From Schmidtea polychroa (taxonomy: Eukaryota), in NCBI GenBank assembly GCA_044892525.1, contig CM097885.1:35836001-35900000 (forward strand): a DNA stretch of 64,000 bases, in the 5' to 3' direction. Under the pieces are notes generated by a model. The model had not been told where the DNA came from, did no database searches, and saw nothing but the letters and a program-made list of their open reading frames with translations. Every line of letters begins with the position of its first letter. The stretch's first letter is position 1. The translations under genes were made by a program, and so were the position numbers. Below, in pieces: positions 780 to 48,700 of this stretch.

Positions 780-2339
780 TGTTGGGCTAGAACTGATTTC
801 TAGACCCAAAGTTGGGAATGGGACGAAATGTGTCAGTACACAACACGCATACCCAGCATTAAGTTTACTTAAATAAAAATATATAAAACACCAAGTAAAC
901 AATGATAATAGAGAGATAATATACCCAAAAATAAAACATCTGAATTAAAAATAAAATAAAACACGAGCAAGAAGTATTACACGAAAACTTACTCAAATAT
1001 AACCGAAAGACATAAAACAACAAAAAACAAATTCGAATAAAGGCGATTAGTAAAAATTAAAAAAGAAAATTAAAGAAAATCTTCATAAAATCTTACGTAA
1101 AGAAAATTATATCGATATTTTGAATAAAAATCCAGAACAATTCATAAAAATGGCGAAATCCATCATGACGGCCAAACGACCCAATAAAATTTATAAAAAA
1201 TAAATATTTTAGTTTAAAAAATAAATATTTTAGAAAAGAAATCATAAAAAACAATTTAAAAATAAGAAATAGATTAAATTTAGCATGGACTGTTCTGGAA
1301 ATGCTGAAATCTATCATGGAGGCAAATTTAATAAAAAATAATTCGAAAATAAAATTTCAAAAATAAAAACAAAAATTCTTACTGAAAAATCGCCATCAAA
1401 ATCGATAAAAATTAAAAATCGAATGTTCGAGAATTAAAATAATCTGAATTTGTTTTACTGCATCAATGCACGCATGTATACTTACACGTCAAACAGAGGC
1501 TATATAAACTAACACATTTCGTCACTTTGAAAGCAAGGAAAAAAAAATGCAAATGAATATTTTTACTCTTATGCCAAATTTTTGGTTTTGATTTCTCTGA
1601 GATTGTAGGTAAGGACGATTTCATTGTGAATTATAAATTATTATTATTGAAAGCTTGTTTTCATTATTTCTTTTTAACTATAGAAATGTAGGTTTGAGTG
1701 AGATCGTCGGTTATCATTGATTTTGAAGCGAGATCCCAGCCAACCCTGCACCTATGCACTTTATCATCGATGATTAAACAGCCCACAATGATTGCAGGCC
1801 ACTGCCTGGCACGCACTTATCAATATTATTTGTTTTTTTTGTTCAGGTCATTCGGAGGTCGCACCACTTCATGGTTCTGCCATGGAGTTAAGTCGATGAA
1901 ATCCTCCGTCTGACTCTACCTATTTATTATAGGTCAGCCGTAAAGGGTTGACTTACCACACAACAGTAAGGTTTGTCGTAGTGGTCACAGTGGGGCCGCG
2001 AAAGCAAACACTCTTCCCGACTTTCAATACATGAATAACTTACATAGTTAAAATCTACATCCAAAATCATCACAATACAATACACTAAGGTTAATAAACC
2101 GAGTAGATCTCAGACCTAAATTAATCACAAATCTACAATTCATAATTCATGTAGACGGTTAAATATCATCAAGAACCCACTCTACCTATACGTTTGTCGA
2201 ATCTAGATTCATGAATGTCTTAAATAAATTTTTTTAGTAATAGTGTAAAGCAAAGATTTTTAAAGATGATTAATTTAGTAGTGATAGTATTCATAAAGGT
2301 GTTCGACATGCGCATCAGCAAGACTTGGATTTTAAATTG

Positions 2340-3130
2340 AATAGACTCTAAACTAACTATAAAAATACCAATCGTAAACCCATAAAAGTATAAACTATCC
2401 TCTCAATTTCATAAAAATATGAATTATACTTATAGATTCAATTTCTTCAAAATATAAATTATGATTAGTTATAAAAGTATAAATTATAAATTTAATTTCC
2501 TAAGAATATAAATTACAAATCTATATTGACGGTAAAATTATAAATTATAACTCTAAGTTAATTACAAAAGTATAAATTATAAAATTATATTAGCCTTAGA
2601 ACATAAACTATAAATTTAACTTAACCTCATAAAAATATAAATTATAAACTTAAAAGTATAAATTATAAAGTTATATTAGCTTTAAAAATATAAATTATAA
2701 CCTTAACTTCATAAAAATATAAATTATAAAATTATATTGGCTTTAAAATATAAACCATAAATTTAACTTCATAAAAATATAAATTATAAACTTAAAAATA
2801 TAAATTATAAAATTATATTAGCTTTAGAAATATAAACTATGAATTGAACTTCACCAAATATAAATTATAAACTTAAAAATATAAACCATAAAATTAGCTT
2901 CATAAAAATATAAATTATAAACTTAAAAATATAAATTATAAAATTATATTAGCTTTAGAAATATAAACTATAAATTGAACTTCACCAAATATAAATTATA
3001 AACTTAAAAGTATAAATTATAAAATTATATTAGCTTTAAAATATAAACCATAAAATTATCTTCATAAAAATATAAATTATAAAATTATATTAGCTTTAAA
3101 ATATAAACTATAAATTTAACTTAACTTAGA
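2340..3130. repeat. Complex AT-rich minisatellite built from ATAAATTATAAA-based subunits
   Basis: Many recurrences of aaatataaattataaa alternating with cttaaaa or attatattagcttt spacers. Confidence 0.85.
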
Positions 3131-3149
3131 TTGCCTTTAACATCATAGT

Positions 3150-3690
3150 TGAAAATTTTTCATCAAAGACCCCCCCATAAACCATATAGTCATCAACTAC
3201 CACCTAAATATACTAAATTAGCTTATCTTAATATACATTTAACTTATATTATATTTAAAACTATAAATTGTAAATTTTTATGAATGACCCCCCTCAAAAT
3301 CATACAGTCATTACCCATTACCTAAGCATACTAAATTGACTTATTTTTAATATATATTTAACTTACATTATAATAAAAAATATAAGTTGTAAAATTTCAT
3401 GAATGACCCCCCTCAAAATTATACAGTCATTACCCATTACCTAAGCATACTAAATTGACTTATTTTTAATATATATTTAACTTACATTATAATAAAAAAT
3501 ATAAGTTGTAAAATTTCATGAATGACCCCCCTCAAAATTATACAGTCATTACCCATTACCTAAGCATTTTAAATTAACTTATCTTAATATATATTTAACT
3601 TATATTATATTTTAAAATATAAATTGAAAATTTTCATAAATGACCCCCCTTCAAATCATGTAGCCATTAACTATTCCTTAGGTACACGAA
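3150..3690. repeat. About 119-bp tandem repeat, about 4.5 copies
   Basis: The GACCCCCC landmark recurs near 3168, 3286, 3405, 3524 and 3642. The central copies are nearly identical. Confidence 0.9.
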
Positions 3691-3811
3691 ATTATATCAT
3701 CTTCGTATAGAGTTAAATTATATTTCAAATCAAACCAAAAATTAAATAATTCCATAATTTTCGCAAAAGATACCCCCATATGTGGGAATCTTGTAAAAAA
3801 ATAAACTTACA

Positions 3812-3962
3812 TTTATTATTATTATTAACATTATTATTATTATCGTTATTAATATTATTATTATTATTATTACTATTATTATTATTATTAGTATTATTAC
3901 CATTAACATTACCACTCTTATCATTATTATTACTATTATCATTACTATTATTATTATATTAT
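3812..3962. repeat. Imperfect (ATT)n microsatellite
   Basis: Direct reading; it explains the spurious poly-I and poly-L ORFs at 3742-3965. Confidence 0.95.
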
Positions 3963-4487
3963 TAAAATAATTATCTTTATTTCAAAAAATAAAATTATAA
4001 AACCGATTATTGATTTTGGGATTCCCCTATCTCTAAATTTAGTCTCAATGGCCCTATCTTCCAATAAAATTACGGAAAATCACTAAAATCTATTTTTAGT
4101 AACACCCCCCCCCCCGGAAAACGACATCAATATTATTAATTTAAATTATATCCATATATAGGTATGTGTGTATATGTATATGTATATATATATGTGTGTG
4201 TATATATATGTGTGTGTGTGTATGTACATACAGATTTATAAAGCAACCTTATAAAAATACGATAACCTTCCCCCTCAAGACCCCTGTTATGTGATGGTCA
4301 CAACCCCCTTAAGGTGATGGAGCGAGGTTAGAGTAGTTTACTGAAGTAATTTAGTAGAATCATTTATTGATTTATTAGAATTATTGGATTTATTTTTAAC
4401 TAAATCAAAAGAGACTAAATTTATTTTTAACTAGATCAAAAAAAAAAGAAAAACAAAGACTAAGTTTATTGATTTCGATCATCAACT

Positions 4488-4898
4488 TTATTCATATAAT
4501 TGTTTCTTTGAATCATAGTTATACCAAGGTCCTTCGAGCACGGTTGATGGACCATCCCAATGAAATACATTTCCTGGAGTTGGAAGACTTCTGGATAATT
4601 CCTTATTTTCTGCTTCGTTCCTTTTGGTTCAATGACTTACATATTGATTTGACGTAATATTGTTGGATGGCCAACTATATTCCTTGCATCTCTTTTTGAG
4701 TAGTCATTGTCAGATAATTCCGCCAGGAAGATTAGTTGGTGGAACTGACCTTGGGGCAATCAAACCTTCGTACCTCACTGAATTATTATCAACTCGATTG
4801 CTAAGGAAATTAATGAAGTTAATTAATTAAATTAAGGAAGTTAATTACAATTTTCTCATTGGTGTTGTCAAACGATCTTTGCTCATTCGAGATGTCAT
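4488..4898 (-). pseudogene. NDUFA7: NDUFA7 (complex I subunit B14.5a)-like unprocessed pseudogene
   Basis: MSKDRLTTPMRKF | 48-nt GT-AG intron (4848-4801) | NRVDNNSVRYEGLIAPRSVPPTNLPGG /frameshift/ LSDNDYSKRDARNIVGHPTIL /frameshift/ ELSRSLPTPGNVFHWD. This matches the recalled NDUFA7 motifs LRY..I..R..PPP.LP.G, LS.NYY..RD.R and the invertebrate C-terminal LPTPG..Y.WD. Confidence 0.7.
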
Positions 4899-5932
4899 AA
4901 TACATTATTGATCAATAGTAATTGTTCGGAGATTCGGCCAAATGCTGATATTCCTGAAATATTATGAAATTTTAGGATATAAATGCTTAAAATTTTAATT
5001 TATTTACATTATTATATCAAAGTTAACTAAAATCATATATTTATTCAAAATTTGTTATTTAACATTAATTATAATTACTATAATAAAACAACGAAAATTT
5101 AAATAATGTTAAATAACTTTAACAAAACAAAAAGTAATAATGAAATCAAAATTCCATTACTTTATTTAAATTATTAGTTACCAACTTGTTCTAGTATTTT
5201 AACATAATGAATTCAAGTATATTACGGAGTTAGTTTGGTCATTTGAGGAATATTATAAATTGAAAATTTAAGTAGATTAGAATTATTTACTCTTCATAAG
5301 AACTTTTATGATTGTAATGAATCTAAACTTCATATATTAATATTACCCATAATTTACAAGTGATATTTGGATTATGTTAAAATAGGTTGTAAGTTAACTT
5401 AACTAAATTGAAATTTTCTTTTGATCAGGTTATCGTGGGGAATGCATGTTATCTTTATCATTTCTATTGTTTCAGTTTATTAAGTTTTTTTTTTATTTTC
5501 TAATTAAATTCATTAGTCTCAAAAATTTCTTGAGGTTTGTTTAATAAACTATGGTTATGTTTCACTTAATTTATATTCAAACATTTTAGATGTGGTGTTG
5601 TATGAACAGGTTTTAATAGATTAATGTATGATTCCTGATGACTTATGATCGTTTGAGGATAGAAAGTTTGTATAGGCATAGTTGAGAAAGTAATTATAAT
5701 AAGGGACCTGCGTAAATCGGACATATATCTTCTAACGATAGTCCGTGAACCCCGTAGAGTGCTCGACAATTACAGTGCAAGTAGTGCGCTCACTTTTTGC
5801 GAGCACTCACCCTCTTGATACAGTACCAACGTTGATCATTCAACGGGTATCAAGCGGTAAACAATGTTGTATCTTGGGTTATGCTGGTAACAGCACTAAA
5901 GAGCAAAATATTTGATCATCAGTAACCCACCA

Positions 5933-6697
5933 GAGTTATGGAACACGAAATCCATTCCTTAGAAACATGTACTTTTTTTTCTGTCTCAGTTGCTAAATAT
6001 TTAATTTGCGAACAATCTTTACATCCTAATTTGCCATCTTTTATTATCAACCATTTATATTGTTCTGTAAATAAACTTACTTGCTTTTCATTTCAACAAT
6101 CAGGCAAGTGGGTATTAATATTGGTATTTGAAAATAAATCTTCCTCGATTTCTACAGGTACAACAGATGTTTCTTCAATATGTTCGTTAAAATCAGGTGT
6201 TATGATATTTGAGTTTATTTGTGTAACTGCAGAATTGTTTAATCTGTTGCCAATTGTTTTTTCAGTCATTGTCGGCTGCGGAGCAAAAAACGTCAATAAA
6301 TTTCCCTGTTTTCTCTTCATTTTGGATAAACAATCACTATAATTTACATAAAATTAGTATTCCTAATTTGTTTTAATATATTTTAATAATAATTATTACT
6401 TACCTATTAGAAATTGTAAATTTAGTTTTAATATTTTTATATTAAACTAGCTAGCTATTAATTTTATTTTATTAAACTGAAACGTGTACACATTAATACA
6501 TTCCAGCCTAATATGAAAGACTATGTAAATTGTTATCGCAATACAAAACTATATATAACACAAATTCAAATATCAAAGTCTACTACCATCAAAATAAGTA
6601 ATTAACGGTTAGTTTTAAATTTTTGTTTGGCAATTCAATTAATTTAACAACCGGCTCGGCGATTTTTTTTATTGCCAACAAACGGCTCACGCGAGCC
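5933..6697 (-). mobile_element. 5' part of a hAT-Tip100 (KIAA1586-like) transposon: subterminal region plus transposase N-terminus
   Basis: ATG at 6320: MKRKQGNLLTFF...[57 protein letters not shown], with one TGA at a conserved Trp position. Subterminal GGCTCGCGTGAGCCG/GAGCCGGTTGTTAAA motifs at 6620-6697; the terminus falls in the N gap. Confidence 0.8.
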
Positions 6698-7244
6698 NNN
6701 NNNNNNNNNNNNNNNNNNNNNNNNNNNNNNNNNNNNNNNNNNNNNNNNNNNNNNNNNNNNNNNNNNNNNNNNNNNNNNNNNNNNNNNNNNNNNNNNNNNN
6801 NNNNNNNNNNNNNNNNNNNNNNNNNNNNNNNNNNNNNNNNNNNNNNNNNNNNNNNNNNNNNNNNNNACAAAAATAGACTTAGAATTCAAACAATTCTCAA
6901 ACAAAAATTCAGGGCTTCATATTTAATAGTTATAAGATGTTTTACAATGCAGAATAAGAACCAGATCACAAATTTACATTTACATACAGTTTTGTAATTT
7001 TAAAATGCTACGATTTATTACACTAGGTGAAACGTTCCTCAAATATAACCCTTCATAGACAAACCTTTAGTGGATTATTGTATATAATCAATTAATATTA
7101 ATGATTTATAATTTTAGTTTTTAGGGGGGAATATTTTTGAAAATGTCCAAAATCATTTCTTATTCCATTCTGCCTATTATCACTAAAAAATAAAAAGGAA
7201 AACAAATTTCTTTATTTATACTAACTGATTTTTTTGATATTTAG

Positions 7245-16389: not shown

Positions 16390-19300
16390 CTATTTCAAAA
16401 CATTTAAAACACAAGTAGTCACGGCATTTTGCACGTTAATTTTCTGATCTATTGACTTTATCAATAACGTTTCACAAATTTAACGTTCCCAATAAATATT
16501 GAAATTTTTTAATAAAATTTTAAAATCAGACATACCAATATTTCTCTTACAGCCCTTATTGTACTCACTATTATTGGTCAATGCTTTCGGTCTATGCTGT
16601 TCTCGAGCTTGGATACACAAATGACGGGAAGCCTCTCCAATTTATGTGGTATTACACTCATTACGTGTAAATTGATAAACGAAATGAGAACCGACACAAT
16701 CAAACCGAAGTTTTAGACTTATTAATAAATATATTGTGTACTTTACATAAAATTGACACAATCTTATAGTTTAAATTACACGACTGCTTACTTATCTTTC
16801 TTTTATAATCTATAAAACCTTCTGAGTACAGAAATATCAACATAAATTTATGCTCATCATCTGTACACTCGCTATTTAATTTCTTTAGCTCATCAAACTC
16901 GCCAACACCAACAGAAACACATCCAGATTTTCTCAAATACGTATCATTAGGATTTTTAATCCCTGTTTTTATCTAATTTTCTGGATGGAGTATTTTTGTT
17001 TGAATTAAATATTATTTTTCAGAAAATGAAAATGAAATTAGATGAAATGGGAAACAAATATGTCAAACAAATCAATGATCAAATTCGAGATTTACAGACA
17101 CAGTTATCTGAAAAAGCAAATAATACAATTGATGAACATAAAGAAGAAATGAAATCTTTACAAAGAAAAATATCTTTGCTTGAGGAGCAATCTAAAACCA
17201 TTGTAAGTATTTAAACATTTAGTTAATATTAGAAATTATGAGATAAGTAATGAAAAGATTGAAAACGAATGTCACACTACAGTTCCGGATAGATATTTCT
17301 AGAAGGGAACAAAAGGATGATTAGACACTCTTAATTTTAGAAACCTAGGTGATTGTCGTAAGTCTTTCGAGACAATTTAATGACTTCTATAATCTTAAAT
17401 TTTATCTATTTGAATTTTTCGTATTCCATTATAAATATCACAGTACCTTGCTGCTCTGCTGATAGTGAAACTAAAATAATTTTATAGTACTTTTTTATCA
17501 TTCATCCTTTTCAGTTTCCTTTATTTTGACCTTTTTACTCAATAGAATAAATCATATCAATCAATAATTTATAACCAAGGTGCCAAAAGTATATAAAAAA
17601 ACCTTTATAAATTTTACTGAATATGTAATTATTTTAGTTATATTAATATAACTTACATTACTCTAAATAATATCTTTACCTTAGGGCGAAATTAAAATTT
17701 GCAAAGGGTGCCAAAGAGTTAAAGGCTCAATATTCGAAAAAAAATTGTTAGAAAATAATTTTTTTAAAGTTAATTGATTTGTATTTTACGGATTTTATCT
17801 TTTGCTTTCTAAAATTTTTTGTTAATATTAAATTCATTACAAAATCAATATATGTATTTCTTCTTATTTGATGATATAGGTATACTCGTATCTTGTTGAA
17901 ACTATATAAATAAGAAAATAGTACGAGGGAATTACGTTAAAAGTTTTATTAGCTAATAAACAATTTACTAGAAAAAAACATCAATTTAAAATCCTAATTT
18001 CTGAAAAATGTTATATCTGCATCAGATAATTTTTAACTGAATTTGTGAATACTTTAAAAATTATATAGGATGGAAGGTAGAAGTAGGAAGAAAGTAGAAC
18101 AAAAGAGATTAGGTGAAATGTGTATCTGCCTAGCGAGCAGTAAAGGGTTAAAGCCCTTTCCATTTTTACATATGAGATTATAAACAGTACCAAAAGGGCG
18201 CTCCATTACTTCTATGACAAGAGCGGCACCCCGACAAAATAGCCCAGGACAAAATAGCCCCGTCAAAATAGCCCCGTCAAAATAGCCTGCCCACAAAACA
18301 GCCCAAGACAAAATAGCCCCGTCAAAATAGCCCCATCATAAATAGTATATAGTAGTATATAATGAGGGGTGGCTAAAACCCCAAAAATTTTAAAGTTCAC
18401 ATTTTCAAGATGGCCGTCCCACCTCATCATTCGTAGTGGAGGTACCACGATGTACCACAGCCAGCGCGACTCGTTTACGGAGTAGCCGAGCATATGTCAA
18501 TAGTAAGACGGAGAATTTAATTAAAATGTCATGGTCGATTTTACATACAATAACGCAGGACCTCCACTACGAATGATGAGGTGGGACGGCCATCTTGAAA
18601 ATGTGAACTTTAAAATTTTTGGGGCTTTAGCCACCCCTCATTATATACTACTATATACTATTTATGATGGGGCTATTTTGACGGGGCTATTTTGTCTTGG
18701 GCTGTTTTGTGGGCAGGCTATTTTGACGGGGCTATTTTGTCTTGGGTTATTTTGACGGGTCACCGACAAGAGCGTTGAGCAACCTCGAGCCGGCACTGAT
18801 CTTTACAACCAATTTCGCTATATGTAAAATTTTTTGAAGGCGGAATAATTTTCAAATATATTTATTTCATTTGTTTATTTGTAATTATGATTACCGTATA
18901 TACTCGCGTATAAGTCGAGTAAATTTTAAGAGGTTTTAAGTCCTAAATTGGAAACCCGCGTATAAGTCGAAGTAACAAAAATAAAAAAAAATGGTTTAAT
19001 GATTTCATTAAAAATTAATTTGTACGTTTTTTGACCCGCGTATAAGTCGAAGTGGCTATTTTGACTTGAAAATTTGACGTAAATTTCCCGACTTATACGC
19101 GAGTATATACGGTATTTTAAAATTTGTATATTTTATAACTACTTTTTTTAATTAGTATAACCTAAGTCTACTAAATTTATTTTCAATATATTATTTCACT
19201 TCACGTGAAAATAAACTGAACACTGAGCTATACTTGTCGATACATTGTGTTAATTTTAGCACGGATTATTAATTCATAGAGAATTATATTAAACCGCGTT

Positions 19301-26027: not shown

Positions 26028-27040
26028 TTAAACAAGTAAATGAGGAATTTGGGACTTAACATATCTATATATTTTTGTTCAAGTATACTTATTACATCCT
26101 CAGCCGCTTTTCTCAGTAACTTGTAATTTGATTGTATAAATATGCTCTTTAAAAAAGATATTTTGTACGTTTAACACCAGTATGAACTAGCTCGTGTATT
26201 TTATTGAATTTTGCTTTTCTCACAGTTGGTGAAACAACTAACTTATTTTTATTTATTAGAACTGTTTCGTAAATGTGATTCAATTCATCTTTTTGTAACT
26301 TAATTATTTATTATACTGGCCATGGAAAACGGTTTCCTACATTAACACGTTAGTTGCCATCAGACATGCATTTCGTGTCTCAGATTTTCTCACTTACCCC
26401 TTTATATTTAGCCACGTGGACTGATAAATTACATTGGTCTATCCTTTTGTTCTAAAACTGCTTCAAGCATATCTCCAGATGTGTCGGTTCACAGTTAGGT
26501 TTCATTACCCTTTGAGAATTCAGCAAGTTTTCTGACTGAAATCACTATTTTCTTCGTGTTAATAAATGATGTTTCTTTATGTAAGTGAATCTATATATAA
26601 TATTAATTGACTTATTGCAGAAATCATTGTTATTAGCTTTATTTAAATCTAACTGATATTTTATTTATATAAATTTAAAAATTGTTTTTTAGGGAAAATG
26701 AGAAAAAAATTAGTGAAAATAAATTATCCTTTTTTTTCCAATTCTCCGGGGTTTTATGAATGACTCCAGGTGATTGTAAAATTTAGGTGGTCACCCTAAT
26801 AGTTTTGCTATTTTTGAGCTTCACACATTCTAAATTTTTCTTTTTCATTGAATACAACTAGTAGAGAAGGTGTACAGGATTTTGATAGTCTGCACCTCCC
26901 AGCTTTGATCTCATCATCAAACCATAACTTTGCTGCTCTAAGATTTTCTCCAAAAGTAGTAGGATGTGTCACCACTGGCACATGTCACCTCTGGCACACA
27001 CCCCCCCGGGGGGGGGGGGGGTAAAAAGAAATTTTTTTTC

Positions 27041-27547
27041 AAGGTCAAATTTTAAACAAAGACATATGACTCATCAAGGTCATTGAAACAAAGGCCATGA
27101 CTCATCCTATGACTCATCAAGGTCATTGAAACAAAGACCATGACTCATCAAGGTCACTGGATGACTCATCAAGGTCATTGAAACAAAGACCATGACTCAT
27201 CCGATGACTCATCAAAATTCTTAAGGTCATTTAAACAAAGACCATGACTCATCCTATGACTCATCAAGGTCATTTTCAAGGTCATATGACTCATACTATG
27301 ACTCTTCAAGGTCATTTTCAAGGTCATATGACTCATAGTATGACTCATCAAAATTCTCAAGGTCATTTAAACAGAGACCATGACTCACCCTATGACTCAT
27401 CAAGGTCATTTTCAAGGTCATATGACTCATAGTATGACTCATCAAAATTCTCAAGGTCATTTAAACAAAGACCATGACTCACCCCATGACTCATCAAGGT
27501 CATTTTCAAGGTCATATGAGTCATCGCGATGAGTCATCAAGGTCATA
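27041..27547. repeat. Irregular tandem array of ATGACTCA(T) and TCAAGGTCA motifs (candidate enhancer or terminal repeat of the PolB element)
   Basis: Manual count: about 20 TGA(C/G)TCA heptamers and about 17 AAGGTCA motifs, linked by TTGAAACAAAGACC, TTTT or AAATTCT spacers. It is preceded by a C7-G14 run at about 27001-27021. Confidence 0.9.
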
Positions 27548-27953
27548 TTATTATTTTTAAAAAATATTATTATTTTTATTATTATTTTTAAAAAATATTA
27601 TTATTTTATTTTTAAATTTTTCAAAGTTCCCGCCAACGAAAAATAATAATCGATAGCTCATTTTAAAGCTCAATCCAAGACCTTTCCANNNNNNNNNNNN
27701 NNNNNNNNNNNNNNNNNNNNNNNNNNNNNNNNNNNNNNNNNNNNNNNNNNNNNNNNNNNNNNNNNNNNNNNNNNNNNNNNNNNNNNNNNNNNNNNNNNNN
27801 NNNNNNNNNNNNNNNNNNNNNNNNNNNNNNNNNNNNNNNNNNNNNNNNNNAAAATATCATTATTATTATTACTTTTATTATTATGAAACATATATATATA
27901 TATATATAAATAGGTCTAATAACTTCACTTACAACATTCACAAATATTCATCG

Positions 27954-28522
27954 ATGTCTTCAAACGATCCACAGGTTTGATGTTATAATTATTTAGTAAT
28001 TTAATTATTTTAAATAAGGTACAAGGATTGTCTATTGATTGGGGTCATTCCTTTTTAATAATAGATAAACTTCTAACAATAAATGATGAAGATTATATAT
28101 TCCTGGCCAAAATAAATAAATCTTTCAAACATCAAGTAATTCAAAATCTATTTGATAAGTTTGGCTTCAATATATCGATGTTGAAATTAACCAGCTGTAT
28201 AATATCTATAAATAATATTAACCATACAGAAATTAACATGCTTAAGGTTTTTTGGATATGTATGGATTTCAGGTTCGGAAAATATCGCGAGCTTATTGAA
28301 ATCTTCCTTCTTAATGCATATAAACTTGGTATTAAAATACATAATTTACTGAATGAAGTCAGAAAACAGTTTATTACATGTTGTATATGTCGAATTCGAG
28401 AAGTTTCTATTCTATATCTGCCTTGTGGTCATATCATTATTTGTTCCTTATGTTTGAAAAACTGTAGTAGATGTCAGAGTTGTGGTGTCATAATCGATGA
28501 ATCTCATTCAGTGTATTTTTGA
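27954..28522 (+). CDS. Spliced RING-finger protein (C-terminal C3HC4, IAP/neuralized type, no BIR domain), 174 aa; exons 27954-27974 and 28019-28522
   Basis: ATG TCT TCA AAC GAT CCA CAG|gtttga...aaataag|GTA CAA GGA TTG gives a 44-nt in-frame intron. TATA-like TATATAAATA about 45 bp upstream. C-terminus CCICRIREVSILYLPCGHIIICSLCLKNCSRCQSCGVII. Confidence 0.8.
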
Positions 28523-28870
28523 AATAANNNNNNNNNNNNNNNNNNNNNNNNNNNNNNNNNNNNNNNNNNNNNNNNNNNNNNNNNNNNNNNNNNNNNNNNN
28601 NNNNNNNNNNNNNNNNNNNNNNNNNNNNNNNNNNNNNNNNNNNNNNNNNNNNNNNNNNNNNNNNNNNNNNNNNNNNNTCACAAATGACTAAAAACATAGT
28701 GGATTATTATAAAATTTATAACACAAAAATTATACCATAAAAAGTTGACAAACAAAAATAACTAAATATTTACAAATTTTTTATTCGCCATCATATTTAC
28801 AAATTTTTATTCAACATCGTATTTACACAAATATAATCACAATGTTAAATAATTGGCCCAAAATAAAACT

Positions 28871-31800
28871 TTAAATTATTGAATTGAATATTTGATCGAA
28901 TTGTTGATCTCGAATGACAGGATCCGTTTCAGGCATGACGATATTACCACTACCATCTAAGACATCAACCCCTCTATAATGTCCATATGCAAAACTTGAG
29001 TTTTTCCCTACCCAAGCTCTCTTATCGTCGTGATTATTTAAAGCTATTTTTGAGTTTTTAAAAGTAAATAGCTGATGATTCCGGGTTCCTATTCTAGTTT
29101 GAGGAACCGACATGACTGTGTTGTTGTTATAGCAGTCTAAATAAGATTGATGTTTGATGTCGGTCCCCGGTAATTTTACGCCCTTAGCCCTCATTGTTGA
29201 CTTATTTCCTAATAGGCTGTAACATTTAGGACGTAAGAAAACCCATTCACTATATCCTACCCCTTTACTCTCATCCTTAAACTTGCCTATAACTGAGTCA
29301 AGTCGCCTGGAATATAAAGGATGAGAGGGATCGTAATTTGAAGTATCTAAAAGGTCATCCGAAATCATCGCTTGTAATAAGATATCTCATTTTAAATTTT
29401 TAACCTCTAAAAAGAAAGAGTCGGTATCACCCGCTACTAAATTAATTTCACAATTATAAATATCCCGATATCGTTGTAGCTCTATATACTGTAACTGATA
29501 CATCCGTAGTTTGGATAGATCCAGTACTGATTGTCCGATGTAGCTGGGTCTATCCAAACATATAGAGTCCTTATTGAGATGCGCGGCAAACAGATCATCA
29601 GCTATTTCAATTGTTTTTCTGAATGCCGGTTTTGACGAATATGTAATTAATTTTTCAGATGAATTACATAGTCGCAAATTCATCCTCTTTTTAAGGTTCT
29701 CTACGGATTTACCGTACAGACTATTATTATATAATTTAAATAAATCTCTATATATTTCACTAACTGCATTAGCACGCAAGTTAGTGTTTTTATCGATATA
29801 ATGTTTAAAGATATAATTTTGTTTATATTTTATAGCTCTGTGTATATTTACAACCTTAGCCCCAAGTGAAAGATAAAGCCTGAGAAGCCTCCAATGAAGA
29901 ACATAGTTCTTCTTTGGATAATGCGTGAGCATTAGCTTCTCAACTTTTGAGTTAGGTGGGCACATCTTTTCCGGTCCAATCGGAAAGTCATTTAAAAAAT
30001 CATGGAAATCAATCGGAATCTCGATATCAACTTCCATAGTATATCCATATGGAAGTGTTTCGATATCCGCAACATTCACACACTCATCCAAAACTTCATT
30101 CAAGCCATCATACACCCAAGTAAAATCACCATAGGGAAGACTTTGGCTAAGAGCCCAACCATACAGATTATTTATATCAATATACAATAATTCTGTATCA
30201 TCTGAAGCAGCCGTGTAATGTTTGTTAACAAATGTTAACCCACCCCGTATTCCTCCCTCGTAAAAATTGAACATTTCCATGTCCTGTAAAAGTTCTATGG
30301 GTTCCGTTAATGTCATAAGCGCTGAGGCCCATGACATACCGGGAATTCCATAGAAATTTAAAGGTTCCAATCCATTGTATGCAATGGCATTGGCCCGGAA
30401 TTGTTGAAAGTAATCAGCGAGTAGGAATACATCGAGTTTGAGGTAGGTTAACATATAGTCACGCAAATTTATACAGTTTTGCTGCGTCCAGATTAGTTGT
30501 GCCTTAGCGTACTCATCTTCGCTAACACCAGACCAAATAGGAGGTAGTTCATATGTAGTCTCAAGAACATCAAACGAGGTAGCAAAATCATACGGAAAAA
30601 TACCTTTACAGTCAACTATAGTACCTTGAAAGACAGACGAAGTTAAAGGAAGAGAAGTTAGTGTTTTCACAGCCTTAGCTAAAGAGCAATTAACAAATTG
30701 CATAGAATCTATAAATCTCACAGCCAATTTATTAATATGTACAATTAACGAAATAAATTTTTCGGTTGAGGTAGGAATTATGTTCAAGTCCCAAGATGGA
30801 AAGCCATTGAGACCGTGTTTTAAAATATGGTGGAGGTCATAACCTCGTAAATTATGAAAGACAACAGGTAGTAGACGATAAATTCGACGAGCAACATTAC
30901 ATTTTCGGCAAGATGCCCCTAGATATTTACCAGAGAAATGACAGTGGTCTCTTACCGGATTTACTATAGGTTTTTTACATAAGTAGCAATTTCTACAAGA
31001 TTTAAACTGACGTTCCTCAATGAAAGACATAGGTCCTATCAACTTATTACCTTCCATATCATAATACGGTATCACAACAGTAGTAGCAATTTCCTCAACT
31101 TTTTTAAGAAAATCAGTAATACAGTCAAGGCCATAAAATTCAAAATATTGTTTAGTATTTTTATAATTATTTATTAATAAAAGGCCTGCTGAACTAGGCA
31201 TATGAATTTGATGATGACGAACATCAGGGGGTAAAACCGACTCAAAATCGGCATAAATTACAAAAGGTGGTGTTATTGTTTTTGAAAAATTTTGAAATTC
31301 GAGATTTTTATTTGAGGGTAAAGTGTAAAGGGTTGTACCTGTCTGATTTTTGGCACATAATGCGACATGAATATTAAACGCGTTATCTAATCGGAACCCG
31401 TTAAGACAGTGTGGACACCATTGACATCTTATTTGAACGTTACAGTCCGGGTTCCGATGGCAGTTCATTAGTCTATTGATATTGGTCACAGCAGTATAAT
31501 GATATCGATCCTTATTTTCTAATAATAACAAATAAATTGGGTTTCCGTCAGTGACCTTAGATCGATGGATAAGACTTAAATGAGGATGGTGAAAGACATA
31601 ATTATCAGGGGTTTCATCGTCATCAATTATTATAGTTGGAGTGTATGAAAGCACATTAATGGCTAATTTTAAATTTATGTTTTTCTTTTCAAATTTAGGA
31701 ATGTTGATTAATTTCATGGGACAATCCGTGACTTCGTCATATTTTAATTCACTCAAAAATTCAGTATATTTAGATACTCTTTGAGGATTTTCACCTATTT

Positions 31801-32869
31801 GATCTTTCTTTAATAAGTAAAGAATGGAATACAGAAAGCATTTATCGTCGCTATTTTTGATGTTAAGTATAGCTTTCTTATTTCTCAATTCAGAAGGGGT
31901 TTTAATATATTGATGTCCTGCCAAGCGACTAATTGGTTCATATTTAGTGATAATAAAATGTATCTCAAGAATGTTGATAACGCGCCATCCACTGCCTAAA
32001 TAAGTAAATTGTTCTATTTTTTCATTAAGTTTATAAACCCCTTCGTTTAAAAAGTCATCAGAAAATGTCGTTGCATTATTAGAAAAGTAATTGTCACGGA
32101 TTTCACTATCTTTTTCAAATCGAATTAATATCGCAAATTGAATTTTGACGCTCCCCATTTTAGTAATTTCTTTTATTAATTTCGTTTTGATTTTATCAGT
32201 TAAAATTATTTTAATTAATTGCGCATCTGATACATCAAAACGTAAAGTCTTGATAGCGCCATTTAAATTTATTGTGATTAAGGGTTCATTCTCTAAGGAA
32301 GAACCTCCAAATTGAATCAACTCATTATTTATAATATCTACATTATTTATAATAGGTATAATTTCATTATCTACAATATTTTCATTATTTATAATTTCAT
32401 TATTTATAATAGGTATAATAGGTATAATAGGTACAATTTCATTATTTATAATAGGTATAATTTCGTTATTTACAATAGGTATAATTTCATTATTTATAAT
32501 AGGTATGATTTCATTATTTACAATATTTATAGAGTCATCATCATCACTGATTTCGATGACTTCCTTTTTAATAATTTTATTAGGTATATTATTTTCTATA
32601 TTTTCAGCAGGTCTTTTATTTTTTGATGTTTTATTTTGTATAATATTTAAAATATCACAGTTATTTTTATTAATTTCCCTAAATAGGTCTTTTTTATTTA
32701 CTTTAAAAGAATTTAAATGATTTGAATGTTGTTTAAAAAATTCTTTATATCTAACGCTCTGGGAAGTTTTGCATATGGGGCATATAAAAAATTTGATGCC
32801 ATTAAATTTATGCATGTAATATTTTTTCATGTTTTTATAGCATGAAATACCATGACCGATTGACGACAT
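28871..32869 (-). CDS. polB: Protein-primed family B DNA polymerase of Maverick/Polinton type (1332 codons, interrupted by one in-frame TGA at 29389-29387)
   Basis: Exonuclease motifs YADFES, FHNLRGYD and YLKLD. Polymerase motifs YIDINNLYG, KLYNNSLYGK, GDTDS and (after the TGA) DTSNY...GKFKDE...LRPKCYS. Also a GSGW / INIKNSDDKCFLYSI N-terminal region, zinc fingers and an endonuclease-VII-like CYLC...RDHCHFSGKYLGASCRKCN insert. The 1160-aa and 165-aa ORFs are in the same frame, 6 codons apart. Confidence 0.92.
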
Positions 32870-33149
32870 GCAATATCTTGGGAAAAAAGAACCTGATAAA
32901 AAAAAATTATATAAATTAATTTTTAAAAATTAATTCATTAACATATAAATAATAATAAAAAATCAAATATCGCAATGTCGATATTTTGATGTTATTATCA
33001 TTCATTATTATACAAGTCTTTGTAATGAAAACTTGTATAATAATAAATGTTAATACTTAACTATTTAAGGTCATGTCTTTGTTATAACTTGCACATGTAT
33101 TGGATGAGCACTGTATTTTCAGCATAATATTTTCTTCATTTTCCTCATT

Positions 33150-33150
33150 T

Positions 33151-33232
<82 letters not shown>

Positions 33233-33342
33233 AAAGAGAAGTAGCTACATGCTCACTGTAGACTACTATGTAGCTGCATGCTTACTGCAAACTACTGTAG
33301 ATGGGGTCTGATTATTATTTATATATTATTATGATTATTATG

Positions 33343-33398
<56 letters not shown>

Positions 33399-33460
33399 AA
33401 AGAGAAGTAGCTGCATGCTCACTGCAGACTACTATGTAGCTGCATGCTTACTGCAAACTA

Positions 33461-33497
<37 letters not shown>

Positions 33498-33500
33498 TTC
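33150..33500. repeat. (ATT)n tracts interleaved with two copies of an about 67-bp unit
   Basis: ataaaagagaagtagct(a/g)catgctcactg(t/c)agactactatgtagctgcatgcttactgcaaactac at about 33229 and about 33395. Confidence 0.9.
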
Positions 33501-33512
33501 ATCATTGAAAAT

Positions 33513-34160
33513 TACTACGAAATAATCAATATATTAAGCCTAGTATTTTGCCGATATACTAACAATTATATTTAAGACAATCAACCAATCACAATGAAAT
33601 CGCGTGATTAAGTGTAATTGTGCAAGTGATTTATGCAACACAAATAACAGCTCAACATTATTATGCAATGTTGAATCCGTTATGCAATATTTCTTATAAT
33701 AACAATGGCACGATCAATTTAATCACTAACCTGTCCATACTCGCTTTTCTTAACTCCATTTCCATTTATTAAAATGGCATTTTTACTAGGAATTTCTTCT
33801 TCTTCACTTGACTCGCTTATTAGAGTTAAATTATTTTTGTGTTTAGAATCTTTTTTCCTCAAACATGGATATGATCGAGAAAATCTGAATATAATTGAAA
33901 ATGATTGACATAATCTCAGGAATTGTTGCAAACAATATTAAAAATTTCGAAAAAATAAATCAAATCACATTGAATATAACATTTGTTAAACACAGACAAA
34001 AATCAGTCCCGCAAACCCGCTTTTATGTAAATAATATTATAACATGAAATAATAAAGATGTGTAATTTTATTAATGTTATATTTTGTTACAAGGGAATTT
34101 TGTCAGCTTCTAATCACGAAATTCAGGGAATTCGTATCAATTGAAGATTATAAAATTGTT
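33513..34160 (-). repeat. Copy A of a 648-bp inverted duplication (partner 45770-46417); contains an exon-like segment at 33884-33731
   Basis: Reverse complement of 45770-46417. Identical wherever compared, except three substitutions near 34108-34146. The identical 70-aa ORF appears in both copies. Confidence 0.95.
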
Positions 34161-35329
34161 TCTTAGTATTCAGTATTACGGATCCAAAATCTTTCGTTGG
34201 TGGAGTTGAAAAATCTCATTCAGCGCCATAATCTGTCTGAAACAGAAGCAAATTCTCCCAAAGAAATGGTCATCAAATGTCCAGCTCCAGCTATTCCTTC
34301 ATCTTTTCTTTTTCCTCTTCTTTCAATGTTCTTTAGGGGTCCACCAACATTCATTGGCCCTAATGCGATAGTCACCCCTTCACCAGTTCCGACAAAGACA
34401 TTAAAAAAACCCCACCTGTACCAAGCACAGAGAAATCGACAACGATGACTGCAAAAAGAGACGATAGCAGAACAGCAACAGGCTGCAATTCCAGAGATCG
34501 AACCAGAATTCGATCTCGCGACATCTTCTTTTCCGTAGATATAGACAATGAAGTCATTTTCAACTTGGACTATCTCCTGGAAGGCACTCAAGTCAAGTAT
34601 ACTTGACATTGAAAACACCTTACATCGTGAACCTTTATATTGTTTTATATCTTTTTGTTGTTTTGTCTGTAATTAATACAACTTATGATTCTTTATTCCA
34701 AGATTTGATTTTAGTCATTTAAATTCTGATTTTAAATGAAGTTAATTCACGTATAATTTTGATATTGATTTGTTCATTGTGTCCTCTCGGAAGTCCACTC
34801 TTAATAGACGTAAGACATTCTATCGGCCATCTAGAATCTCCGATGGGTGTCAAGTAGAAGTAGTTTTGGTAACAAGGTTCACCTGTCTGCTCACATCCAG
34901 CCAATGTATAGAGTATTAACATCGTCTGTCGCCATGTATATACAAAGGGTTAGTTTCAATAGTTATGTGGTCGATTACCTTTGCTTTCTTCCTAGATGTT
35001 GACATGATATTGTCTTCAGTACGACGCAACACGGTAATTAAATTAAAATAAGACACTCTCTAATTTAAAATAATTCTATTAAATGACCAATTAACACTAT
35101 TAAATACAAGGTTGTAATAAAATATGAAAAACCTAATAAAATAATACTTCAGAATAATCCAAAAAGTCAATTACATTTAAAAGTTTAGTTTTATTTTGAA
35201 AATAAAAATTACATTGTATATGTAATGTATATAACATTTGTAATCTTGGTAAATAATGTGATGTAGTAATTTTAAATGAATTCGAACTTAATGTAATTTT
35301 TGAAATTGGTGCTTTTTAATATATATGCT

Positions 35330-45701: not shown

Positions 45702-48700
45702 GATATTCAATCTTTAAAACTGATAATGATAAATTCGTTTTCTCATTACATGTAAAATCATTATAAAGGAACAATTTTATAATTTTCAATTGATACGGAT
45801 TCCCTGAATTTCGTGATTAGAAACTGACAAAATTCCCTTGTAACAAAATATAACATTAATAAAATTACACATCTTTATTATTTCATGTTATAATATTATT
45901 TACATAAAAGCGGGTTTGCGGGACTGATTTTTGTCTGTGTTTAACAAATGTTATATTCAATGTGATTTGATTTATTTTTTCGAAATTTTTAATATTGTTT
46001 GCAACAATTCCTGAGATTATGTCAATCATTTTCAATTATATTCAGATTTTCTCGATCATATCCATGTTTGAGGAAAAAAGATTCTAAACACAAAAATAAT
46101 TTAACTCTAATAAGCGAGTCAAGTGAAGAAGAAGAAATTCCTAGTAAAAATGCCATTTTAATAAATGGAAATGGAGTTAAGAAAAGCGAGTATGGACAGG
46201 TTAGTGATTAAATTGATCGTGCCATTGTTATTATAAGAAATATTGCATAACGGATTCAACATTGCATAATAATGTTGAGCTGTTATTTGTGTTGCATAAA
46301 TCACTTGCACAATTACACTTAATCACGCGATTTCATTGTGATTGGTTGATTGTCTTAAATATAATTGTTAGTATATCGGCAAAATACTAGGCTTAATATA
46401 TTGATTATTTCGTAGTANNNNNNNNNNNNNNNNNNNNNNNNNNNNNNNNNNNNNNNNNNNNNNNNNNNNNNNNNNNNNNNNNNNNNNNNNNNNNNNNNNN
46501 NNNNNNNNNNNNNNNNNNNNNNNNNNNNNNNNNNNNNNNNNNNNNNNNNNNNNNNNNNNNNNNNNNNNNNNNNNNNNNNNNNNNNNNNNNNNNNNNNNNN
46601 NNNNNNNCACGGTGGATAGGTACCGTGTAAAAAAAATCGTGTAAAAAAATCGTGTAAATTTAAATAAATCGTGTAAAAAAAACCGTGTTAAAAATAATGT
46701 AAAAAAATTACTAACAAAGAAAAAAAAAGCATTTTCGTAGATTAGATCCAATAACAGCAGAATTAAGAATTTTTTTTTATTTAATAACAATAGTTTAGAA
46801 AAATAAGCATATTCAATGTATATATGTATAGACATTACGAAAAAATAAATTTATAATTAACAATTTAACAAAAAATAATCTTTTAATCACTGTCAGTGTC
46901 TGAAGAAATACGTATGCGCTTTCTTGAGACTGGTTTAAAATTGATTTCACATTCAGATTCCTCGCTCGAAATTTTAGGTTCTTTATTTTCATACAGAAGC
47001 TGTGAAGTCAATGAAGTCAATTTATTCGTTATAACAGAAACATACATATTATTAATTATGACACCGCTATCAATTTATATTATACGTTTGTAATTTGATA
47101 ATAGAATCTTTATTGCGTAAATTAAGAATGACGGATTCAAATCAATTAATAAGCGGACTATTAAAAGGCCTTTTAGACTTTATACAGGATTAATCTAATT
47201 TGTCGAATGTAAGGAGTTATAATTGTAAAATATACATTCCGTTATGCATTTAAACGTCTTTATAAGAACAAAGTTATTCGATATGCTGGTCACTTAGTAC
47301 ATGCTTAATAGTTTAGTTTGAAAATTTTATGTTCATTTTTGACTGTTTGACCTCAGCATCATCGACCTTTATTTAAAGTTTTTGAAGACAATTGAAAAGC
47401 AATTTAAAAAAAAATTATATTTGATAAAAAACAACAAATCAAAATAGTAAATATTTTGAAAAAAGAATATATGTGAATAATTAACAACATTTACTGTATT
47501 TCAAGTTAAAGTGAATGCTATAACGGACAAATTTCCAATGTTATATAAAGGCTTACAGTACATTTTTATAATATTTAAATAAAATATATTCCGACAAATT
47601 TATTTATAAACAAACGAAAATAGGGAAGTTCAACAATAACTATATATTTGTGATAATATCATAAAGATTTGCAGTCTCTAATTCAAAATAATAACATTTT
47701 TAAGTATCCCCAAATTTGCCTGAAGATGAAGCATAACTGGGAAAATTCAAAACAGTTTAACATAGATAAAAATTATAAAGCGCTCGAAAATGAGTAAAAA
47801 TCTGAGATTTATTTAAATGCCATATTAATTAAATTTTTTATGAAAAATTCCCCTATGTGAATTGTATAATTATCCTTTAACATTAAAAAATTTATCTCAT
47901 TTCTTATGAATGATGAGTCGAATGAGTCAATACCAGAAATTTTTGTACAATAATTTTACCGGTGGGATATTATTATCTTATCATGAAATTTTGTTGAAAT
48001 ACAATTTAATAATTGCCAGAAAATGAAATCTGGCTCATGTAAAAGCAACATTTTTGGAAATGAAATTCGAAATTTCAATTGGTTTCTGGCAGATTGGTCA
48101 GTTTTCCCAATCCCAGGATTAATTGCAGTTTTCTGATTCACCATGTGTTGTATGAATTTGGTTTTTATTTATCTTTTCCATATGGTGATAATTGAAAAAT
48201 CTCATCAATTTATTCATATATAATTATAGGTCATTATTTGTGGTTTTAATAGATCTCTTTGTAATTTAATCAATTCTTTTTCATTATTATTTTTGATTTA
48301 GTAAGGAAAATTGCTTGAGAAACACATTAGGTTATCAAGTCAGATTCAATTTTCTACATTGTATGCTTAAAAGCATATTTGAAATTGTTATTTCAATCAT
48401 TGACTATGTATAAGTATTGTTAGCATATATAAGCATTTTTATTTTTTATTAATATCTGGATAAATTTATAGTTTATCTAATAAGCATAATAAAATTTATA
48501 AATGATAATAATGATAATTTTTAACGATATTTTGTATTTCTATTAATTTTGGTATTTGTGAGTAGGGTAAAAATAAAACAAAAAGAAATCTTTAAAATAT
48601 ATTAAATGTAAACATTAAAATTTACAATGATTAAGGCTATGCTATAACGGAAAATTTCTATCAATAAAAACTCAACGTCTTGTTATACATTTGTATTTTA

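Follow-up and report, generated by a model that had tools for sequence, protein, structure and literature searches.

A compact RING and PolB unit in Schmidtea polychroa is most likely the left arm of a young, high-copy Maverick

How should one read a RING gene and a protein-primed PolB that face each other within about 6.5 kb, far better preserved than the transposon debris around them? The unit lies in a 64,000-nt stretch of the Schmidtea polychroa genome (assembly GCA_044892525.1, contig CM097885.1, positions 35,836,001–35,900,000; hereafter the window), and an initial annotation, made from the letters of that stretch, offered two readings: a truncated young Maverick, or a separate element, minimal or satellite, with a putative E3 ligase as its sole cargo. 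We consider it very probable that the unit is the left 6.5 kb (TIR, RING, PolB) of a young, high-copy family of 18.7-kb Mavericks, its right 12 kb having most likely been lost through a one-off deletion after insertion. The locus, as a truncation of an abundant transposon, carries little weight in itself; it illustrates how a single-window view makes a deletion remnant look like a “minimal element”.

The answer comes from the closest copies in the same genome, represented by the 40 scored among about 2,900 search candidates. The unit aligns at 97–98% identity to the first 6.75 kb of Mavericks of 18.6–18.8 kb, for one of which (L001) the alignment runs colinearly from offset 1166 to 6751 at 96.9–98.3%, which supports the truncated young Maverick. 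Three siblings, 18,588–18,824 bp long, each have a TIR pair and a 6-bp TSD, and the 6-bp flanks are identical at all 14 sites, out of 34, at which both exact termini were captured. The siblings encode a protease (PF00770, Peptidase_C5; E 5e-6), an A32-like ATPase (Pox_A32; E 2e-7), an integrase (rve plus chromo; E 1e-5, below the curated cut-off) and a double jelly-roll capsid. Searched by sequence, the capsid ORF had no match in the PDB, and fold comparison alone placed it: its model (pLDDT 92.4) matches an iridovirus capsid in Foldseek with an E of 3e-16, the matches comprising SGIV, PBCV-1 and mavirus capsids. A 355-aa ORF adjoining the integrase, which has no Pfam or PHROG match, may from its position be the single jelly-roll minor capsid protein.

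Across 35 sibling sites, integrase, ATPase, protease and capsid are all present at 19, some of them at 7 and none at 9, where none means that no core gene lies within 20 kb. Left-arm-only loci are thus common, one of the nine being a fold-back with its own TSD; none of the nine ends at the break point of the window copy, and other truncated copies end at offsets of about 2678, 3189, 5148, 5584, 5730 and 8730. Dispersed copies sharing both ends, by which a minimal or satellite element would be known, were not found: the right junction is unique, and the other truncations end elsewhere. Together with the full gene set at those 19 sites, the local origin of the post-break sequence and a private stop in PolB (both described below), this means that a distinct element with a putative E3 ligase as sole cargo is not supported. 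RING and PolB are indeed linked in other copies, as the normal left arm of a full Maverick. The window copy is a fragment of an ordinary Maverick whose other copies include full-length ones, the very outcome that the initial annotation had named as telling against its proposal. Because complete copies carry integrase, packaging, protease and capsid genes, the window copy is most likely a dead fragment and no new minimal element.

The left end is sharply defined. The window copy begins at 26955 with the Maverick terminus AGTAGTAG; the 27-nt terminus has 300 exact copies in the genome, as against none for the reversed control. The family terminus carries the Maverick/Polinton start motif, (AGT)2 or (AG)3, and siblings have paired TIRs about 1 kb long, of which the part visible in the window spans 26955–27690 (+ strand). 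Within it lies a tandem array of TGACTCA and AAGGTCA motifs (27067–27536, unstranded): TGA[CG]TCA occurs 20 times and AAGGTCA 17 times in 26955–27690, as compared to six occurrences of TGA[CG]TCA across the remaining window, and the array is found at both ends of full-length siblings. The motif array noticed at the outset is therefore real, and the accompanying statement that no TIR could be identified fails, since the terminus is present and the array belongs to the TIR; what is absent is the right TIR, together with the second copy of the TSD. An inverted-repeat search of 20000–45000 returned 719 pairs, the 25 longest of which were all microsatellite pairs.

Immediately to the left (26050–26954, − strand) lies the insertion target, the RT/RNase H region of a decayed LTR-retrotransposon pol. 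With stops read as X, RT_RNaseH_2 matches this remnant at an E of 7e-4, and RT_RNaseH matches the retroelement paralog L082 at 4e-12. Alignments of the host retroelement to three paralogs stop at 26955, 26955 and 26957; it is interrupted exactly at the Maverick terminus, and its continuation was not found nearby. From the sequence, the left 6-bp TSD copy is expected to be TCCAAA (26949–26954, + strand). No exact right end bearing a TCCAAA flank was found in the genome, and the single match with one mismatch lies at an unrelated terminus inside another Maverick, which gives no support to a displaced partner end.

On the right, an internal intergenic repeat block (33150–33497, unstranded; a 166-bp unit with (ATT)n tracts) corresponds to sibling offsets of about 6420–6750; the annotation saw the block correctly, but it is internal to the element and marks no end. 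The element stops inside the last (ATT)n tract of the block and gives way to a 667-bp inverted duplicate (33498–34164, − strand) of 45766–46432 (+ strand), its likely template, beside which the sequence is partly N. Over 652 aligned bases, duplicate and template show 4 differences (99.4% identity), and the post-break segment occurs just twice in the genome, both times within the window. As first reported for the unit itself, integrase, ATPase, protease and capsid are missing: no match to any of them was found in the window, 20 kb to its left or 30 kb to its right, and neither the window nor five 10-kb stretches next to it contained the rest of the element, save for three PolB matches in L092. 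These features are consistent with a sequence of events in which a full-length Maverick would have inserted into the old LTR retrotransposon, and a later break, repaired by template switching, would have removed the rest of the element and the adjacent host DNA. The switch may have copied 667 bp in reverse from about 12 kb away, leaving a remnant that would now be under neutral drift. Since it keeps a single terminus and its PolB is cut short, the window copy would neither replicate nor integrate.

Alternatively, the chromosome may hold a full-length Maverick from which the assembly departed on reaching the (ATT)n tract. Such a local error would suit a break that lies within a microsatellite, in a young repeat of high copy number, and is followed by 667 bp that duplicate nearby sequence; however, the duplicate departs from its template at the four positions noted above, and the assembly contains neither a TSD-matching right end nor the host retroelement's continuation. 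We regard an assembly error as very unlikely.

A further possibility is raised by a 14.5-kb fold-back (L026/L027) arranged as TIR-RING-PolB / PolB-RING-TIR, which has its own TSD, TACTAT, and whose arms are 99.4% alike over 4,259 bases. Other fold-back joins occur at L056 and L080/L081, and some of the rearrangement joins fall at internal microsatellites, that of the fold-back with its own TSD among them. It is conceivable, if highly improbable, that opposed (ATT)n/(AAT)n tracts drive polymerase template switching into copy-back genomes with both termini, a capsid-less, defective-interfering class integrated by helpers, of which L026/L027 would be one member and the window copy a damaged one. 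More broadly, a capsid-less satellite class of RING plus PolB might be spread by helper integrase, with the window copy as a damaged member such as half a fold-back. The fold-backs would fit such a class, but the joins differ between loci, the L026/L027 junction is spanned by itself alone among the 40 scored candidates, and the window copy lacks both an inverted second arm and a second terminus and carries a stop of its own; we regard such a class as very unlikely. A literature survey by title and the start of the abstract returned nothing on PolB+RING-only or fold-back Mavericks.

The two genes themselves agree with the reading as a deletion remnant. PolB (28871–32929, − strand) has exonuclease and polymerase catalytic motifs, and these motifs and its homologues identify it as the protein-primed PolB of a Maverick/Polinton. 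It reads for 1180 codons up to a premature stop (29384–29386, − strand) eight codons past the GDTDSF motif, beyond which lie 170 more; the stop is private, occurring in none of 47 alignments to sibling loci. The gene called “near-intact” is thus present but deprived of its last 170 codons. Relative to its nearest copies it has 1–2 synonymous and 12–13 nonsynonymous differences in 3,447 nt, which look neutral, as far as a claim resting on only 14 substitutions goes. The window copy as a whole, with one terminus and no partner, two genes and this stop, is not a complete Maverick, and its good preservation likely reflects youth, not selection.

The RING gene (27954–28522, + strand) was rightly recognized, with a zf-C3HC4_3 match (PF13920) at an E of 8.5e-7. 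Splicing is plausible: a 7-codon exon 1 (27954–27974) and a 44-nt GT–AG intron (27975–28018) are predicted, and exon 2 ends in an IAP-type C3HC4 RING behind a helical N-terminal part. Contigs of two presumed RNA runs do not reach across the predicted intron and show no splice joint, and so speak neither for nor against it. Among PDB sequences, cIAP/XIAP RINGs match the gene product best (E 5e-8), and as in cIAP1/2 and XIAP (PDB 6hpr, 3eb5, 4ic2) the RING is C-terminal and its last residue aromatic. Unlike in whole IAP-family ligases, the similarity of this putative E3 ligase spans only about 45 residues; no BIR match was found in Pfam or the PDB, and it therefore lacks the pairing of BIR and C-terminal RING that defines an IAP. 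The protein database held no full-length relative among 27 candidates, an ESM Atlas search returned RING clusters only, below 0.9, and the structure model, from a five-sequence alignment, has a pLDDT of 39.5. Domestication of RING or PolB by the host is exceedingly unlikely: the RING frame, open in the window copy, is also open in the majority of young siblings and, within a second subfamily, in 144 of the 150 matches scored, and PolB combines its private stop with neutral-looking differences.

The siblings resemble animal Mavericks/Polintons, in the cited sections of PMC8097293 and PMC6431247, in their (AGT)2 terminal motif, TIRs, 6-bp TSDs and a length in the range of 15–25 kb, and in encoding pPolB, integrase, ATPase, protease and capsid; the window copy differs from complete animal Mavericks in retaining one terminus and two genes only. 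It is degraded as are, in the same sections, 96% of vertebrate Maverick loci, many without discernible TIRs; intact vertebrate elements are described there as intronless, whereas this family has predicted introns in RING and integrase. PolB has 3,662 homologues, many labelled PF03175/PF02945 (precomputed PF03175 labels), though it has no PF03175 match itself at E ≤ 0.1 and holds a weak endonuclease VII (HNH-type) insert; the last two traits would suit a placement with Beta adintoviruses (PMC8502044) or the pPolB2 Polintons of nematodes and oomycetes (bioRxiv 10.1101/2023.08.22.554363), but the PF03175 labels of the homologues make any such placement tentative. IAP and Bcl2 homologues are already known as adintovirus accessory genes, according to the cited part of PMC8502044. 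Unlike that IAP cargo, the RING here has a helical N-terminal part and no BIR match, and this BIR-less, IAP-type gene is a fixed TIR-adjacent cargo in two subfamilies, between which the RING proteins share just 37% identity.

The PolB and RING genes of the window very probably sit in a truncated, one-off remnant of a Maverick family that is ordinary and abundant. Its left end is present: AGTAGTAG begins at 26955 and carries the (AGT)2 end motif, a terminal motif of Mavericks (PMC8097293), so that the initial annotation was mistaken in finding no terminus or TIR. The 27-nt terminus has 300 exact copies in the assembly (145 forward, 155 reverse), and its reversed control has none. The sequence left of 26955 is the decayed pol region of an LTR retrotransposon; when it is aligned with three paralogs, the matches run out at 26955, 26955, and 26957, which marks position 26955 as a true insertion boundary. 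The motif array noted initially was found, as was the right-hand repeat block, and since it occurs at both ends of complete copies, it forms part of the terminal inverted repeat. Its words resemble AP-1 and nuclear-receptor half-sites.

Both reported genes are present. The RING ORF, on the + strand, ends in a C3HC4 RING (PF13920, E 8.5e-7), the best solved-structure relatives of which, in a PDB sequence search, are the cIAP and XIAP RINGs; IAP homologues are reported among adintovirus accessory genes (PMC8502044). The predicted intron at 27975–28018 (44 nt), which is plausible and would join a 7-codon first exon, is GT-AG in 34 of 34 instances among the matches listed, a conservation that says little among copies about 97% identical. 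The protein-primed PolB, on the − strand, retains recognizable exonuclease and polymerase motifs in a 1180-codon frame (29387–32929), followed by a stop and 170 more codons; 3,662 of the 7,994 scored candidates are PolB homologues. It gives no PF03175 match and has a weak endonuclease VII insert, and may thus be Beta/pPolB2-like (cf. PMC8502044 and bioRxiv 10.1101/2023.08.22.554363). Protease, capsid, integrase, and ATPase have no match in the window, in the 20 kb to its left or in the 30 kb to its right.

These missing genes are found in siblings. Three siblings with paired termini and 6-bp duplications are 18,588, 18,760, and 18,824 bp long, and wherever both exact termini were captured (14 of 34 sites), the 6-bp flanks are identical. 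Siblings encode an adenovirus-type protease, an rve integrase with chromodomain, an A32-like ATPase, a TBP-like gene in full-length copies (L009:4625-5086, − strand; PF00352, E 1e-14), and a 406-aa ORF whose predicted fold (pLDDT 92.4) matches the double jelly-roll capsids of an iridovirus, PBCV-1, and mavirus. Mavericks of 15–25 kb bearing this gene set are well known (PMC6431247); in vertebrates, 96% of Maverick loci are degraded, and discernible TIRs are missing from 2,166 (PMC8097293). For the siblings, 20 kb was fetched at 35 sites, which account for 37 of the remaining 39 best matches, the two left out lying in a tandem cluster. The four core genes (protease, integrase, ATPase, capsid) are all present at 19 sites, some at 7, and none at 9; these proportions apply to the 40 nearest of about 2,900 candidates, not to the genome as a whole. 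In a second subfamily (150 scored matches) a RING gene again separates TIR from PolB, and RING is thus normal left-arm cargo. In this subfamily (L015/L016, L018, L102–L126), which has the TIR array and capsid-side genes in common with the first, the PolB DNA is about 75% and the RING protein 37% identical, and the left arm was likely swapped. Sibling integrase genes (e.g., L002, L003, L049) contain a GT-(ATT)n-AG insert within the QTDLG/KEF motif; all 24 instances have GT-AG borders and measure 33–210 nt, a multiple of three in 22 of them. A putative minor capsid ORF exists as two alleles (e.g., L045:793-1860 vs L049:1036-2103) with common ends and very different middles, their best identity to one query being about 55% vs 95–100% in copies otherwise near-identical.

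At the right, the window copy is colinear with the complete 18,760-bp sibling up to 33497 (offset 6751; 96.9–98.3% identity), where it breaks inside an internal (ATT)n tract, and about 12 kb of the element is missing. The 667 bp that follow repeat window 45766–46432 in inverted orientation at 99% identity and have no other match anywhere in the assembly; bases adjoining this template read N. No right terminus with the expected target duplication was found in the assembly, the single near match being unrelated, and the continuation of the host retroelement was not found in the window or neighbouring stretches. Since the nine core-gene-free sites end at other offsets or are broken by a long insertion (L028/L029 being traced only as far as its insertion), and since the 667 bp match only their template, the junction appears private in this assembly. 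Farther right, 34175–34910 is decayed coding-like sequence, with one paralog (72%) on sequence C3 of the assembly; none of the three + frames gives a Pfam match. We envisage that a full-length Maverick integrated into an old retroelement and later suffered a break, mended by a template switch starting in the (ATT)n tract. This would have removed the right 12 kb along with the host DNA next to it and put in a reversed 667-bp copy of sequence lying about 12 kb off. Microsatellite joins also occur at two other rearranged copies, L026 and L056; of 14 break positions checked, 4 have a tract, so tracts account for some breaks, not most.

The good preservation of the window copy reflects a recent insertion, since its differences from the nearest copies look neutral and a selection signal appears only against other copies. 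Relative to L004 and L006, its PolB shows 1–2 synonymous and 12–13 nonsynonymous differences in 3,447 nt, the neutral expectation, computed from the same alignments, being about 3 synonymous of 14. These two loci are not independent insertions but a single duplicated one, as a full-length copy's end and flank recur inverted about 13 kb away. Against the remaining 29 alignments pN/pS is 0.19–0.83, which fits selection in active source lineages. The PolB stop (29384–29386) is private, since none of the 47 alignments to fetched loci shows it; it falls 8 codons past the GDTDSF motif and removes the part that holds the KCY and RAKG motifs, so the product would likely be inactive.

Could the window copy instead be a minimal RING-and-PolB element, as initially proposed, or even belong to a class of copy-back satellites? 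Loci with the left arm alone are frequent (9 of 35 sites), and a real RING-and-PolB-only element does exist, both of which count against a one-off fragment. That element is a 14.5-kb fold-back (TIR-RING-PolB/PolB-RING-TIR; L026:924 to L027:5405, G000:C4:87206126-87220607) with both termini, TSD TACTAT, no protease, integrase, or ATPase, and a join in an (AAT)n tract. Its junction is spanned by itself alone among 40 scored of 2,657 candidates, hence it gives no sign of spread within that sample, and a copy-back class seems very improbable. The minimal-element proposal is not supported for the window copy, very probably a truncated fragment, and finds its nearest real counterpart in this fold-back. 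Other derived forms were seen. L052/L053 and L097/L098 (G000:C2, about 188.4–188.6 Mb) are tandem arrays of a short unit comprising part of the TIR, the RING gene, and the PolB 3′ end, breaking at reference offset 2678. L012:533-8906 (8.4 kb, both termini, TSD GTCGAC), the interior of which does not align to the reference, is a possible non-autonomous derivative. Within the window, an inverted pair of 14-bp tandem arrays at 18229–18759 (195 bp, 97%) is probably a small non-autonomous DNA transposon.
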